From Deltaproteobacteria bacterium (GTDB lineage Bacteria; Myxococcota; Kuafuiibacteriia; Kuafuiibacteriales; Kuafuiibacteriaceae): a DNA stretch of 64,000 nt. Location of the stretch: assembly GCA_040218735.1 (NCBI GenBank), contig JAVJQW010000046.1, forward strand, positions 96,001 to 160,000, in the 5' to 3' direction. Below the pieces are notes generated by a model. The model was not told the origin of the DNA and did not search any database. It saw nothing but the letters and a program-made list of their open reading frames with translations. Made by a program: the position numbers and the translations under genes. Position 1 is the first letter of the stretch. Each line of letters begins with the position of its first letter. Positions 8,702 to 18,708 of the stretch are shown piece by piece.

Positions 8702-10345
8702 ATGCGCGTTCGAACCGGGTTCTTCCTCATCGGCCTCTCGGCCTTCAGCTACGCCTGCGGCGGGATCTCCAACTGCAAGGAGGACGGCGCCGCGTGCGCC
8801 GAGATGCTGAACAAAAACGCGGAGAAGTGTGCCGCGGCCTACCAGCTCCGGCAGTCCGAGAAGAACCGGAAGTACTGCGTCAACGCGATCGACGTGGTGG
8901 GCGACCAGAAGATCGCCGCTGCGCTCCCCGGCCTGAAGGCGGTCCTGGCGGTTCCGGACTCGGACGTGCCGGACGACAAACACCGCGAAGAGGCGGTGAA
9001 GTCCCTCGCGCAGATCGGCGACGCGAGCGCGGTCCCGGATCTGGTCGCGGCGATCAACTTCACGGCGGGCACCAGCTCGGACCCGAAGGACAAGGCGGCG
9101 AACCTCACGAACGAGGCGATCGCGCAGGCGCTCGGTCAGCTGAAGGCGAAGGAGGCGGTGCCGAAGCTCATCGAGCTCACGAACAAGAGCCCGAACAACT
9201 ACGTCGTCCTGAAGTCGGTGCGTTCGCTCGGGCAGATCGGCGCGAAGGAGGCGGTGAAGCCGCTGGAGAAGATCGCGCTCGAGCACTCGAACAAGTTCAT
9301 GCGCAAGAACGCGGTCATCGCGCTGGGTGACATCGGCGATCCGTCGGCGACGGAGACGCTCATCCAGATGATGTTCGTCGAGTACCAGGGGGTGTCGTTC
9401 TACAAGGAGGCTTCGTTCGGCCTGTACCAGATCGGCCCGGCGACCTCCGAGGCGCTGATGAAGACGATGGCCGGCGAGAACAAGGAAGTGAACGCGTACT
9501 TCGAGAGCAAGGGTGGCCTGAAGACGTCGGCCATCAAGGCGAAGTGCGGGTTCGTGCTCGGTGACCTCCGCGACCCGCGCGCCGTCGAGCCGCTCCTCGA
9601 GGCCTTCAAGGAAGCGGCCGAGAAGCCGGACCCGGTGGTGCTCGTCTACGCGGCGGCGCCGCTCGGCGCGCTCGGCGACAAGCGCGCGGTGGGCCCGCTC
9701 GCGAAGGAGATGCTGACGCTCGACGCTTCGCTGCGCGACCCGATGATGCGTGCGCTCAACCACCTCGGCGATCGCTCGGTGGTGCCGGAGATGATCGAGG
9801 CGATGACGAAGGAGCACTTCGTCAAGGCGTGCATGAAGTCGGGCAACTCGAAGGAGGCCTGCACGAGCGACCAGACGAAGGCCTCGCTCTACGGCGCGCA
9901 GAAGGCGGCGATCGACCACGCGTCGAACCTCGCGGGCGCTGAGCACCTCGACGCCTACAAGAAGGCGGTCGAGGCCGAAGAGGACAAGGACATGAAGGAG
10001 TACGCGCAGGCGCGCCTGAAGCGCGTCGAGGCTGCGGGCGAGTGCAAGATGGACCCCGGCTGCTGGGTCAAGAAGCTGCAGGACTCCGACAAGCTGATCC
10101 GCGAGAAGGCCGCGTGGGAGCTCGGCCGCATCAAGGACAAGGGCTCGCTCGACGCCCTCGCGAAGGCGCTCCAGGACAAGAAGTCCGAGCCGCGCTCCGC
10201 CGCGATCATGGCGTACTGGGCCTTCGGCGACAAACGCGCCGTCGAGGCGATCGAGAAGCAGCTGGAAGACGAGGCCGGGATGGCGGACTACGTCCGCGTG
10301 AACGAGGACCTCAAGCGCCTGTTGGTCCACCTGAAGCGCTCGTAG
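8702..10345 (+). CDS. HEAT-repeat lipoprotein
   Basis: Lipobox-like SYAC; repeated ALGxIGDxxAVxxL HEAT-like units. Confidence 0.85.
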   Translation: MRVRTGFFLIGLSAFSYACGGISNCKEDGAACAEMLNKNAEKCAAAYQLRQSEKNRKYCVNAIDVVGDQKIAAALPGLKAVLAVPDSDVPDDKHREEAVKSLAQIGDASAVPDLVAAINFTAGTSSDPKDKAANLTNEAIAQALGQLKAKEAVPKLIELTNKSPNNYVVLKSVRSLGQIGAKEAVKPLEKIALEHSNKFMRKNAVIALGDIGDPSATETLIQMMFVEYQGVSFYKEASFGLYQIGPATSEALMKTMAGENKEVNAYFESKGGLKTSAIKAKCGFVLGDLRDPRAVEPLLEAFKEAAEKPDPVVLVYAAAPLGALGDKRAVGPLAKEMLTLDASLRDPMMRALNHLGDRSVVPEMIEAMTKEHFVKACMKSGNSKEACTSDQTKASLYGAQKAAIDHASNLAGAEHLDAYKKAVEAEEDKDMKEYAQARLKRVEAAGECKMDPGCWVKKLQDSDKLIREKAAWELGRIKDKGSLDALAKALQDKKSEPRSAAIMAYWAFGDKRAVEAIEKQLEDEAGMADYVRVNEDLKRLLVHLKRS

Positions 10346-10547
10346 ACACGCCGAGCCCTTCGAGCAGGCCGCGCAGCTCCTTCATCGCTTGGTCGAGCTG
10401 CTCCATCCGATCCGCGTTCCGCACCGCCGCCATCGCGATGTCCTCGCCGCAGTGCGGGCACGCGACCTCCTCCGGTTTCACGAAGCTCTTGCACGCGTGG
10501 CACAGCGCGAGCTGCGGCGGGACTCGGCCTTTCGCTCGGTTCGTCAC
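10311..10547 (-). CDS. Small zinc-ribbon protein (CHAC...CPHC) translationally coupled to the radical SAM gene
   Basis: GTG 10547 overlaps the rSAM TGA (GTGA); MTNRAKGRVPPQLALCHACKSFVKPEEVACPHCG followed by a helix. Confidence 0.7.
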   Translation of the reverse strand: MTNRAKGRVPPQLALCHACKSFVKPEEVACPHCGEDIAMAAVRNADRMEQLDQAMKELRGLLEGLGVSTSASGGPTGA

Positions 10548-11803
10548 GCGAGCACCACCAGTCGGGGGTGTCCGACCTGCGTGTGGCGCGGCTCGGCGGC
10601 GATGCGCTTCACTTCGGCGCCGTCGTCGATGCGTTCCTCGATCAGCTCGAAGCCGCCGTAGTCGAACGGCTGGCCGGGCGCCGCGCGCACCTTGACGATG
10701 CGCTCGCGGAGGCCCTCTTCGGCGAGCTTGAGCGCGCGGTAGTGGCAGTACGGGTTGTTGCCGCTGCGACCGAACAGCGTGTGCGTCGTCCACGTGCAGC
10801 CCGCGCGGCAGACGTCGGCGTAGTAGCAACCTTGGCAGCGCCCCCACAGGTCCGCCGTGGTGCGCGTGCGGTTGAACGCGAGGGCGTCGGCGTCGTTCCA
10901 GATGTCTTCGAGGCTCAGGTCGCGGATGTTGCCGCCCGAGAACGGCGTAGTCGGGAGCGACGGGCAGCCCTTGATCGTGCCGTCCGCCTCGATGCCGAGG
11001 GTGTTGAGCCCCGCGTTGCAGCCCTTGAAGTGGCTGAACTCACTCCGCCCGCGCCACGCGTGTTCGTAGGGGCCGAAGTAACCGATGTTGTTGCCGGGGA
11101 TGAGGTCGATGCCGTGGACCTTCGCCTTCTCCCAGAGCTCGAACAGCACCGGATAGATCTCGAGCAGCTCGTACGGCTGCACCAGGAGCGCGTCGTTGTC
11201 CGCGGCGCGGCCCATCGCGACGGTGAGTTGGATCTGCCAGGTCGCGATCCCGATCTCGATGAAACGATCGAGCATCGCCGGGAGCTCGCCGAGGATCGAG
11301 CTGTGGATCTGCGTGTTGACGCTCAGCTCCATGCCGTAGCGCTTGCACGTCTCGAGCGCGGTGATCGCCTTGTCGAACGAGCCCGGTACGCCGCGGATCG
11401 CGTCGTGTGTCTCGGCGAGCCCGTCGATCGAAACGCCGATGACGCGCAGCCCCGCCTCCGCCGCTTCGGCGACGCGTTTCTCGGTGAGGTTGCGCGCGCC
11501 GGTCTGAACGCCCGGCAGCATCCCCGCGTCCGCGACGGCGCGGATGAGCGTCGTCCAGTCCTTGCGGAGGTACGCTTCGCCGCCGATCAGCGTGACCTCA
11601 CGGCAGCCGAGCGCCGCGAGCTGCGTGACGACGTCGAGGCACTCCGCAGTGGACAGCTCGTCGGGGCGTCGGCGCGCGGCGCGCGACCCGCAGTGGTTGC
11701 ACTCCAGGTCGCACGCGAGCGTGATCTCCCAGACCGCGTGGGCGGGGAAGGGCGACGTCCAGTCGTCCTCCGTCAGCCTTCGGCCCGAGTCGATCGTCGC
11801 CAT
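10544..11803 (-). CDS. Radical SAM/SPASM peptide maturase, Y_X(10)_GDL-associated / splicease (PlpX)-like
   Basis: AVWEITLACDLECNHC (CX3CX2C), IGGEAYLR, SPASM cysteines GCNAG...KGCPSL...CQGCYYADVCRAGC...NNPYC, C-terminal APGQPFDYGGFEL. Confidence 0.9.
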   Translation of the reverse strand: MATIDSGRRLTEDDWTSPFPAHAVWEITLACDLECNHCGSRAARRRPDELSTAECLDVVTQLAALGCREVTLIGGEAYLRKDWTTLIRAVADAGMLPGVQTGARNLTEKRVAEAAEAGLRVIGVSIDGLAETHDAIRGVPGSFDKAITALETCKRYGMELSVNTQIHSSILGELPAMLDRFIEIGIATWQIQLTVAMGRAADNDALLVQPYELLEIYPVLFELWEKAKVHGIDLIPGNNIGYFGPYEHAWRGRSEFSHFKGCNAGLNTLGIEADGTIKGCPSLPTTPFSGGNIRDLSLEDIWNDADALAFNRTRTTADLWGRCQGCYYADVCRAGCTWTTHTLFGRSGNNPYCHYRALKLAEEGLRERIVKVRAAPGQPFDYGGFELIEERIDDGAEVKRIAAEPRHTQVGHPRLVVLA

Positions 11804-11805
11804 CG

Positions 11806-12429
11806 TCAGTTCCCTTGGATCGCCGCGTTGAGATCCTTGAGCGCTTCCATCGAAGCCGTCACGCCCTGCGGGGTCTCCGTCGAGCCACGCATGACGTTGG
11901 AGGCGCTCGCCGTCGCGAACACCGCAGCGCCGCGGCGCGGTGCGGCCGCGATGCCCGTGCCGTCGGTCGACGTCGTCGCCACAGAGGCGACCGGCGTCAG
12001 CGTGTCGGCCGCGTGCGCGGAGAGCATGCGCGCCATCGCGAGCTTCTCGGGGTTGCTCGGATCAGCGCGGACCTCTTCGGCGGCGCGACGAATCGCCACC
12101 GCGTACAGCGCCACGATCTCGTCGCCCGGGCGCGTGTCGGGGAGCGCGCCCATCATGCGGAGGAACGTCGCGCGCGCGGCCGGCTCCATCGCCTTGCCGC
12201 CGAGCAGCTTCGCGAGGCCTTCGCGGGCCTCCTTCGCGTAGGTCGTGGGCCCGCCGTCCATCGCGCGCGCGGTCGCCGGGTCGGCGTCGAACGCGGCCTT
12301 GATCGCGTTCATCTCCTGCCAGGTGATCTGCCGGCCGCCGAGGCTGCCGGAGTCGGCGAAGGCGTCGACTTGGATCTTCGCGGCGGCGAGGAGCTGTTGG
12401 GTGGTGTTGGGCGTCTTTCCGATGGCCAT
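11806..12429 (-). CDS. Hypothetical Ala-rich protein, candidate substrate of the radical SAM enzyme
   Basis: GGAG RBS upstream, stops 2 nt before the rSAM start, contains IVALYAVAI. Confidence 0.7.
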   Translation of the reverse strand: MAIGKTPNTTQQLLAAAKIQVDAFADSGSLGGRQITWQEMNAIKAAFDADPATARAMDGGPTTYAKEAREGLAKLLGGKAMEPAARATFLRMMGALPDTRPGDEIVALYAVAIRRAAEEVRADPSNPEKLAMARMLSAHAADTLTPVASVATTSTDGTGIAAAPRRGAAVFATASASNVMRGSTETPQGVTASMEALKDLNAAIQGN

Positions 12430-13367: not shown

Positions 13368-13799
13368 TCACCACTCGCCGACGTTGGGCATCGACGCCCA
13401 CGGCTCTTGCACGGGGCGCGCTTCTCCGCGCTGCAACAGTTCGATCGAGATCAGATCCGGTGAGCGGATGAAAGCCATCCGGCCGTCGCGCGGCGGGCGG
13501 TTGATCGTGACCCCCGCGTCCAGCAGGCGCTGGCACAGCGCGTAGATGTCGTCGACTTCGTACGCGAGGTGACCGAAGTTCCGGCCGACGGTGTACGCCT
13601 CCTCCTGGTCCCAGTTGTAGGTGAGCTCGACGTGGGGGGCGTCGGCGTCCTTGGCGCGGGTCGTGGCGAGGAAGACGAGCGTGAAGCGCCCCTTCTCGGA
13701 GTCGCGGCGTCGCACCTCGTGCATGCCGAGTTTGTTCACGAAGAAGTCGAGCGCGGCGTCCAGGTCGCGGACGCGGATCATCGTGTGGAGGTATCGCAT
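13368..13799 (-). CDS. gloA: Lactoylglutathione lyase / VOC family protein
   Basis: [43 protein letters not shown]...IELL. Confidence 0.9.
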
Positions 13800-13843
13800 C
13801 GCGGACGAGCGTGCGCACAGGGGACGCCTGAAGGCGAGCGCGC

Positions 13844-13849
13844 TACAAT
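13844..13849 (+). promoter_or_regulatory. Putative sigma70 -10 element (TACAAT) for a leaderless selenoprotein transcript
   Basis: TACAAT ends 8 nt before ATG 13858; no Shine-Dalgarno visible. Confidence 0.45.
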
Positions 13850-13857
13850 GAACGTCG

Positions 13858-14181
13858 ATGGAGCCGATCACGCGAGGCCCGCTGACCGACATGAAGCGTC
13901 TGCACGCGAAGCTCGACGTGCACGGGATCGCCGCGGAGATCTTGCGCCCGATCGACTGCAACCTCGGCGCTTGAAACGCGACATTCGTGCTCGCGGTCGC
14001 GAGCCAAGACATCGAAGCCACCCGCCGGCTCCTCGACGACGCGTGGCGTGACTCCCTCGACGCCGAGCACCCCGACGTGGTCGTCGACTTCGACCAGGCC
14101 GAGATGACCTGCCCGGCGTGCCTCACCAAGTTCGCGACGGGCCCGCGCGAGTGTCCGGACTGCGGGCTGTTCCTCGGCTGA
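13858..14181 (+). CDS. Putative selenoprotein (CxxxxU) with C-terminal zinc ribbon, 107 aa
   Basis: ATG 13858 is in frame with track ORF 13987..14181 across a single TGA at 13972-13974; SECIS-like hairpin follows; ends TCPAC...[10 protein letters not shown]. Confidence 0.78.
13975..14004 (+). promoter_or_regulatory. Bacterial SECIS-like element
   Basis: Stem GCTCGC (13989-13994) / GCGAGC (13999-14004) with loop GGTC starting 20 nt after the UGA. Confidence 0.7.
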
Positions 14182-14721
14182 TCAGTTCTCGACGAGCGGC
14201 CCCTCGACCTCGACGCGGAACGCATCCTCGGGGATCTCGAGCGCGAGGAGGTTCGACTCGACGCAGGCCTTCGCGTCTTCGCTCACCACGCCGTAGTGGA
14301 CGACGCCGGTGAAGTGATCGATGCCGAGCGTCTGCATGTCCTCGATGACGAACACACCCCTGGAGCGGAGCTCGTACCGCCACAGCTGGGCGAAGTCATA
14401 CGTGGTCTTTTGCGGCGTCGCTGGATTGTTGCGCCAGGGGCGCTCGCCGTAGATCTCCACGAGCGCGTCGCGCGCCTGGTCGGCGAGGGCCTGGCTCGGC
14501 TCGACGAGCAGCACCGCGAGGTGCACCTGATCCCGCATGACGTAGGTGCCGCCGAACCCCGGGACGGTCTCGACGAGCGCCGCGAGCGCGCGTTGGTCTT
14601 CGAAGCCGGGGCCGGTCGGGAACGTCTCGGCCGCCGCCGCGACCGTCGGGCACACGAAGGGCTCCGGGGCACATCCCCAGGCGAACGCGACGAGGGCCAA
14701 CGCGAGCGTCCAGCGCATCAT
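14182..14721 (-). CDS. Hypothetical lipoprotein
   Basis: [17 protein letters not shown] lipobox; VPGFGG motif. Confidence 0.65.
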
Positions 14722-17842: not shown

Positions 17843-18708
17843 ATGCGTTCTCCGTACTTCGCGCTCCTCGCTCTCTCGCTCCTCACCACGCGCGCCGCCC
17901 TCGCGGAGACGCCGCCCGCCGACGTCGCCGCCGCGGGTGAAGAAGATCCGCTCGCGCAGTTCGCGTGGCAGATGGAGGGCCAAGGCAAGCTCGGCACCCG
18001 TGCCACACTCGAGATCCCGCAGGGGTTCCGATTCCTCGAAGCCGCCGAGGCGTCGCGGCTCGTCGAGGCGATGGGCAACCTCACCTCGCGCAAGGAGGTC
18101 GGCTGATCGCGACGCACGACCTCGAGTGGTTCGTCGTCTTCTTCTTCGACGACGTCGGCTACGTGAAGGACGACGAAAAGGACGAGCTCGACGCCGACGA
18201 CATGGCGGAGTCGATGGCCGAGAACCTCCAGTACTCGAACGAAGAGCGCCGCGACCGCGGGCTCGAGGAGCTGTCCTTCGACGGCTGGGCGATCCCGCCT
18301 CGTTACAACGAGACCTCGAACCGCCTGGAGTGGGCGCACCGCCTGCGTTCGGCGACCGGCGTGAGCGTCAACTACAACACCCGCGTCCTCGGCCGGCACG
18401 GCGTCATGCGCGTCATCCTCGTCACCGACCCCGAGCTGCTGGAGGCAACGCTCCCGCAGTACAACAGCTTGATGTCCGGCTTCGACTTCACGAACGGCGA
18501 GCGCTATGCGGAGTACCGGGCCGGCGACAAGATCGCCGAGTACGGCCTCATCGCGCTCGTCGCGGGCGGTGGCGCCGCGGTCGCCGCGAAGACCGGGCTG
18601 CTGACCGCGCTCGTCGCGTTCTTCAAGAAGGGCGCGAAGCTCATCATCGTCGGGCTCGCCGCCGTGGCGGCCTTCGTGAAGAAGCTGTTCTCGGGGCGCC
18701 GGGACTGA
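17843..18708 (+). pseudogene. DUF2167-like membrane-anchored protein split by an apparent 1-nt deletion near 18102
   Basis: Track ORF 17843..18106 continues in the frame of 17965..18708 (GYVKDDE, GWAIPPRY, VNYNTRVLGRHG, GDKIAEYGL); GGCTGATC reads as GG[G]CTGATC. Confidence 0.8.

Follow-up and report, generated by a model that had tools for sequence, protein, structure and literature searches.

A short DG-like zinc-ribbon protein with a predicted selenocysteine at an in-frame UGA

Gene organization at the locus

The window, by which we mean the entire 64-kb stretch of DNA analyzed, carries a forward-strand frame that begins at ATG 13858–13860, comprises 38 codons up to an in-frame TGA at 13972–13974 (codon 39) and continues for a further 68 codons to a stop TGA at 14179–14181 (Table 1). 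With the internal TGA read through, the frame encodes 107 amino acids. Gene calling splits it, as the initial annotation stated: the 38-residue N-terminal half (P0166, on three contigs) and the 64-residue C-terminal half (P0002) are separate database entries. The third codon position has a coding-type GC content in both halves (0.92 and 0.93). The start at ATG 13858 is supported by P0044, a 38-residue protein with 74% identity to residues 1–38, which begins MEPI at the matching Met and ends at the same codon. An in-frame stop lies at 13849, three codons 5′ of the ATG; a second selenocysteine at this TGA with an N-terminal extension was rejected, because the extension would overrun gloA and P0044 shares the Met start. 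A TAnnnT hexamer is found 6–9 nt 5′ of the ATG in nine of the 23 selenocysteine (Sec) genes described below, and in the window it reads TACAAT. No Shine–Dalgarno match precedes ATG 13858, and the sigma-70 scan gave no full promoter. The position of the hexamer next to the ATG suggests a leaderless, stand-alone mRNA.

Table 1. Features of the locus in window coordinates.
Feature	Position	Strand	Basis
Short DG-like zinc-ribbon selenoprotein gene, 107 aa (predicted)	13858..14181	+	ORF; homologue P0044 shares the MEPI start and the stop codon
Sec39 (predicted), in-frame UGA	13972..13974	+	TGA in 22/59 scorable GTDB loci; Cys in 78/108 full-length homologues listed
Cys34, optional partner of Sec39 in the β2–β3 loop	13957..13959	+	No Cys within 8 residues in 6/23 Sec forms
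SECIS hairpin, 6 bp with GGUC loop, coding (x)LAVAS	13989..14004	+	Pairing, covariation and comparative counts
N-terminal β-α-β-β-α domain, DUF2007-like / PrgK-D1-like fold, residues 1–66	13858..14055	+	Predicted structure; PF09413 in 4/124 alignment members
C-terminal Cys4 zinc ribbon CPAC...CPDC (C85, C88, C99, C102)	14110..14163	+	Near-invariant Cys; zinc-ribbon Pfam matches; putative metal binding
TACAAT, −10-like hexamer 8 nt 5′ of the ATG	13844..13849	+	TAnnnT pattern in 9/23 Sec genes
gloA-type glyoxalase, divergent neighbor, outside the unit	13368..13799	−	Profile match; not conserved beside the gene

The initial annotation placed the gene divergent from gloA. The divergent transcription is correct, but the association is incidental, since gloA occurs at only one of 61 homologous loci and that one is a non-Sec locus. 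A 285-residue antisense frame (13368–14225) was rejected as an extended gloA, because the glyoxalase profile is matched from residue 4 onward, counting from ATG 13799, and a homologue aligns from residue 1.

Conservation of the UGA codon

The initial annotation had read codon 39 as Sec, and the homologues agree with this reading. At the DNA level, one GTDB scan gave 61 loci, of which two truncated ones (L041 and L057) were dropped, leaving 59 that could be scored. TGA occupies the Sec codon in 22 of these 59, which are 22 of the best 23 loci, and the remaining one of the top 23 has TGC. Among the 37 non-TGA loci, the aligned column holds TGC or TGT in 16 and TGG in none. The TGA loci are labeled Myxococcota, Ca. 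Eisenbacteria, Nitrospirota, Planctomycetota and Bradymonadales. One Sec form with a bacterial-type SECIS (L020, 10001–10327) lies on a contig labeled Nitrosopumilus sp.; the locus has a GC content of 0.63, its protein clusters with Myxococcales rows, and it is probably mis-binned.

At the protein level, a HMMER search of representatives returned 229 matches at E ≤ 0.001, and the best 150 of the 229 were examined. Removal of three repeat or multi-stretch matches (P0016, P0073 and P0142) left 147, i.e. 108 full-length homologues and 39 fragments. The Sec column contains Cys in 78 of the 108 full-length homologues listed and Trp in one (P0023); this protein keeps the LAVAS peptide and reflects a conversion of TGA to TGG or, alternatively, translation by the gene caller under code 4. 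Nearly half of the fragments listed (19/39) have their first residue no more than four positions from LAVA[S/G], just after the UGA. A word-based protein search gave 14 matches among 18 candidates, 11 of which are proteins of 66–67 residues whose sequences open with (M/V)LAVA directly downstream of the UGA; the other three are the C-terminal half of the window gene itself, a full-length Cys form (P0003, DCTSGACSS) and a ribbon-only protein. No fused form was found among 8000 long candidates, which counts as weak evidence, and no plasmid match was obtained with a Cys homologue as the query. Pooled codon-position differences are biased toward the third position both upstream of the UGA (0.53/0.43/0.59) and downstream of it (0.37/0.35/0.54).

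TGA is also the stop of 42 of the 57 window genes in our own ORF calls, this gene included, and on this ground a genome-wide reassignment of UGA, or a changed genetic code, was rejected. The 372 open-flanked TGAs of the window include no other convincing candidate for readthrough.

The SECIS hairpin

The hairpin described in the initial annotation is present, with the stem strands GCTCGC (13989–13994) and GCGAGC (13999–14004) enclosing the loop GGTC (13995–13998). Its loop begins at +21, i.e. 20 nt after the UGA. The likeness to the E. coli fdhF element also holds, in that the apical loop of fdhF is likewise GGUC and begins at +19 relative to its UGA. However, the window element differs from fdhF in its perfect 6-bp stem without a bulge, its lack of a conserved lower stem and the absence of any match to the Rfam SECIS family, either at the gathering score or at E ≤ 10. 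The bSECIS criteria given in a recent review are a loop of 3–9 nt, a stem of 4–16 bp, a G in the first two loop positions, a spacing of 16–37 nt and an MFE ≤ −7.5 (PMC13188914); the window hairpin has a G-led 4-nt loop (GGUC), 6 bp, a spacing of 20 nt and an MFE of −12.1 kcal/mol.

Taken alone, this hairpin is weak and unremarkable evidence. Hairpins of at least 6 bp with a tetraloop and a G in the first two loop positions accompany 59 of the 1375 TGA triplets in the window, and six of these 59 have a GGUN loop. Single-sequence folding z-scores of 0.01 (hairpin) and 0.80 are uninformative. The support beyond chance is comparative. A hairpin of at least 6 bp with an RGUY loop is found in all 23 TGA genes, the window included, versus one of the 37 non-TGA homologues, and that lone locus carries it at another position; among the 16 loci with Cys in the aligned column, one has the hairpin. 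The loop starts at +21 in 22 of the TGA genes and at +24 in L012. When synonymous codons were resampled with the peptides kept, about 4.8 hairpins in 23 genes were expected, versus the 23 observed.

Pairing was examined in a DNA alignment of 21 of the 23 TGA genes; L012, which has a 3-nt insertion, and L021 were omitted from it, and both were kept in the hairpin count. In these 21 sequences, all 126 of 126 cells are paired. One pair changes from C–G to U–A in five sequences and is synonymous on both sides, and another changes from U–A to U–G in four sequences (Ser to Gly). The covariation score was matched by none of 500 shuffles. However, the five compensatory sequences are mostly kin and may represent one or two events, which counts against our explanation. 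The hairpin encodes LAVA[S/G], a peptide found in only three of the 108 full-length non-Sec proteins listed; thus, the RNA structure appears to hold this peptide constant.

The conserved UGA, the covariation of the SECIS and the pairing of Sec with Cys in the aligned column together give strong support to Sec recoding, and codon 39 is very probably a UGA read as selenocysteine in a gene that the annotation splits. Alternatively, the UGA might be a true stop, through a pseudogene, a split gene or a sequencing error, or might encode Trp or Gly under a changed code. The unexceptional hairpin of the single sequence, the Trp of P0023 next to an intact LAVAS and the lack of Sec genes seen in the window speak for this alternative. 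Yet the same TGA recurs in 22 other genomes labeled across several phyla, divergence is third-position-biased in both halves, the SECIS covaries and TGA ends most window genes, including this one. A stop or a changed code is very improbable.

Predicted structure

The initial annotation called the product a small zinc-ribbon protein, and the near-invariant Cys4 ribbon and the zinc-ribbon Pfam matches bear this out. The AlphaFold2 model, built from a 124-row alignment, has a pLDDT of 92.4 and a pTM of 0.65, so the domain arrangement is uncertain. Strands are modeled at residues 2–7, 26–29 and 43–47 and helices at 9–21 and 49–66, followed by the ribbon. The least confident block (79) is the one that contains Cys34 and Sec39, which is consistent with an exposed loop.

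Foldseek returned nothing at E ≤ 0.001, and no homologue of solved structure was found beyond ribbon-only matches. With VIA-align, the top match for residues 1–63 is the first periplasmic domain of PrgK/EscJ, the ring protein of type III secretion (Z 9.3, r.m.s.d. 1.3, 56 aligned residues, 16% identity). Unlike PrgK/EscJ, to which identities are 12–16%, the window protein has no evident signal peptide or membrane anchor, and no secretion locus surrounds the gene; we treat the likeness as that of a common small fold. The next match is RPA1041 (2HFV), which we take to be a DUF2007 protein, with a Z of 6.8 that is below the reliable level of the tool (r.m.s.d. 4.3, 64 aligned residues, 23% identity); its identity is the highest among the top rows (23–25%). 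The modeled domain would share the β-α-β-β-α topology of DUF2007 (PF09413, 'putative prokaryotic signal transducing protein'). It differs from DUF2007 in the added Cys/Sec loop and zinc ribbon and has no match of its own to PF09413, a family that is matched by four of the 124 alignment members, and weakly (E ≥ 0.0024). Our literature search found no function for DUF2007. Since the best fold match is PrgK/EscJ rather than the DUF2007 protein RPA1041, the fold gives no function. A homotrimer prediction for a Cys homologue with Zn scored 0.33 against a mark of 0.42.

Comparison with the DG family

The initial annotation described a protein of unknown function. The zinc-ribbon description stands, and a family can be named for the protein, since sequence homology links it to the published DG selenoproteins (NF049953). 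DG was predicted by deep-Sep (2025) in two Desulfosediminicola species, with TGA and Cys homologues noted elsewhere (PMC12013277), and a 2026 review lists it with the motif GUxG (PMC13188914). NF049953 is the sole NCBIfam match of the window protein at E < 0.001 (E 2.4e-18, 66.7 bits), and it aligns profile positions 61–171 of 172 with residues 3–106. The curated cutoff of 130 is not reached, and five other Sec loci score 60.7–82.5. In contrast, seven long homologues pass it with 169–266 bits.

The two forms share the middle domain, the Sec in a Cys loop with a Cys 11 residues before a conserved Leu, and the C-terminal ribbon. Like the window protein, DG is a predicted selenoprotein, and it goes by the names 'hypothetical protein DG' and 'zinc ribbon-containing (seleno)protein DG'. 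The two forms differ in several respects. First, the DG reference is longer, with a model of 172 positions and an N-terminal CxxC..CxxC ribbon, whereas the window protein has 107 residues and lacks the ribbon of profile positions 1–60. Second, the Sec motif listed for DG is GUxG, whereas that of the window is GAUNA, and a few relatives have GUG. Third, the DG reference reads CAKGUGGPDLQL in Table S2 of the deep-Sep report (PMC12013277), which places Sec seven residues before Leu, at the first Cys of the CxxGCC of relatives; in 22 of the 23 genes here, Sec lies six residues before this Leu, at the second Cys. The SECIS-coding peptide also differs, being LAVAS in the window versus LVVRA in the DG reference. 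Finally, the hosts of the short form are labeled Myxococcota, Eisenbacteria, Nitrospirota and Planctomycetota, whereas the host of the DG reference is Desulfosediminicola.

In a 75-row tree calculated without the loop and SECIS columns, the Sec group stands apart from the DG-like rows (99/94), in a sampling that lacks the DG Sec sequence itself and draws on protein libraries that cannot show TGA members. However, an AU test does not reject a single clade (p 0.342). Separate origins of Sec in the short form and in DG are thus suggested at most. A fuller version, which we consider quite unlikely, is that the short subfamily gained Sec independently at the neighboring Cys, that its own SECIS froze LAVA[S/G], that it spread over several phyla and that it serves as a non-catalytic selenol redox or metal sensor on a signal-adaptor domain; if true, bacteria would here be using Sec for regulation rather than for catalysis.

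We conclude that the window gene belongs to a subfamily of short variants within a family known from computational prediction, outside NF049953 by cutoff. Our literature searches found no description of this short form, and BSepDB (PMC13326102) may hold these genes under DG.

Genomic neighborhood

The Sec loci have no conserved neighbors beyond those shared by close relatives. Neither selA, selB, selC nor selD was found in the 64-kb window, and no gene of the Sec machinery occurs among 206 flanking ORFs of 22 Sec loci. The window contains no tRNA gene, and a tRNA scan of 28 loci did not find selC.

Several loci have neighbors worth recording. A CobW-family metallochaperone lies two genes 3′ of the Sec gene at two near-identical loci (L013, 1354–2298, and L015, 5209–6171). 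Nine loci with long non-Sec homologues, mostly without loop Cys and Anaeromyxobacter-like (L031, L039, L043, L045, L046, L049, L056, L058 and L061), share a conserved neighborhood in which the genes, named by eye, look like those for the glycine-cleavage H, P and T proteins and FolD; this neighborhood may offer a clue to what the family does. L017 (18076–20224), on a contig labeled Ca. Eisenbacteria, carries GatD- and GatE-like genes, with GatD above its cutoff. GatD and GatE are usually archaeal.

Elsewhere in the window, a DUF2167 gene (17843–18708, forward strand) extends over two overlapping frames (17843–18106 and 17965–18708), each with a Pfam match, and the frameshift near 18100 is either an assembly error or a pseudogene. 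On the reverse strand, 10311–12429 encodes a radical SAM/SPASM maturase near TIGR03913 (571.8 bits, cutoff 591.75), flanked by a 78-residue CxxC..CxxC protein and a 207-residue protein without assignment, and this region is possibly a RiPP-type cluster. Between 26000 and 30000, the GC content is 0.59–0.62 compared with 0.68, the ORFs score poorly and there are no NCBIfam matches; this segment is likely a foreign island.

The cysteine loop and proposed function

The ribbon cysteines are near invariant in the alignments, whereas the loop varies in both length and Cys spacing. Among the 108 full-length homologues listed, 52 carry two loop Cys and 25 carry three, whereas 27 lack loop Cys altogether. 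The CxxxxU spacing, which the initial annotation considered uncommon, turns out to correspond to the commonest pattern in the family: CxxxxC, with Cys 11 and six residues before the conserved Leu, accounts for 24 + 13 of the 78 listed full-length homologues that have two or more loop Cys. Among the 23 Sec forms, ten are CxxxxU, four are CxxxU, three have Cys only at −7/−8 and six have no Cys within eight residues. Thus, the proposed Cys34–Sec39 pair is plausible in the window protein, but it is not a conserved core, since the partner is missing in six of the 23.

Recoding of UGA by SelB and a hairpin is established biology. In the window gene, conservation suggests that SelB on the GGUC hairpin would insert Sec at UGA39. 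The predicted product would be a soluble protein of 107 residues with a DUF2007-like domain, whose exposed β2–β3 loop would present Sec39 and Cys34. After the loop would come a helix and then a structural Zn(Cys)4 ribbon, zinc being the metal presumed to be bound by the four cysteines. The domain and the ribbon together would form a small binding or adaptor module. The loop selenol would act as a reactive switch, either on oxidation, when it would be joined in a selenenylsulfide to Cys34 or to a thiol of a partner, or by binding a soft metal, and the state of the switch would alter the interaction of the module with a putative partner. We assign a rough probability of 0.4 to this explanation as a whole, i.e. 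Sec recoding combined with a small binding or adaptor module whose optional reactive loop senses oxidation or soft metals. The function itself, in which the loop of a small adaptor would switch in response to redox state or metal, is tentative.

A modulatory role is favored over an indispensable catalytic one because loop Cys are absent from a quarter of the full-length homologues listed (27/108), loop length and spacing vary, and the partner Cys is lost in part of the Sec forms. If the loop held a fixed catalytic dithiol, the spacing of the pair should have been preserved, and we therefore favor an adaptor with an optional loop. Against the explanation stand the lack of sel genes in the window and in the Sec-locus flanks scanned, the lack of a conserved neighborhood that would indicate a partner or pathway, and a fold match that gives no function in a model of uncertain domain arrangement. 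Moreover, most characterized selenoproteins are catalytic oxidoreductases (PMC13188914), which counts against a switch.

This prior from selenoproteins in general (PMC13188914) is one reason to consider that the protein, with Sec real, is instead a small enzyme, a thiol/selenol oxidoreductase, or an electron carrier. Peroxides or mixed disulfides would then be turned over by the Sec39/Cys34 couple, next to a possibly rubredoxin-like ribbon. A Cys pair is found in 78 of the 108 full-length homologues listed, and weak rubredoxin-like profile matches occur. However, the structure searches revealed no thioredoxin-like or other known redox fold, the loop Cys is missing in 27 of the 108 listed with variable spacing in the rest, and reductase neighbors are not conserved. 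We regard catalysis of this kind as rather unlikely. The loop could also, again with Sec real, be the soft-metal site (Cu, Zn, Ni, Hg or an Fe–S cluster) of a metallochaperone or metal-buffering protein. The three loop Cys in 25 of the 108 listed homologues, as in CxxGCC, the weak HypA matches in 42 of 124 alignment members, the CobW gene adjoining the two near-identical Sec loci and the RND efflux genes adjoining three related ones all point this way, but the ribbon accounts for the HypA matches, the CobW and RND links amount to one lineage each, and in six of the Sec forms the Sec stands alone in its loop. A dedicated metal site is unlikely. We therefore retain the adaptor with a switchable loop as the working explanation.

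Implications

Nothing known about Sec decoding is overturned by these genes. An annotation error that recurs over many genomes is put right, affecting at least 23 genes and dozens of truncated database entries. The DG family, published from Desulfosediminicola, is extended to a distinct short subfamily that scores under the NCBIfam cutoff. The subfamily also offers a clean natural SECIS, a single invariant hairpin that can be read as a peptide motif and that comes with Cys-form controls. Finally, natural Sec, Cys and Cys-less variants of a protein of only 107 residues make an easy test case for the use of Sec outside thioredoxin-like folds.
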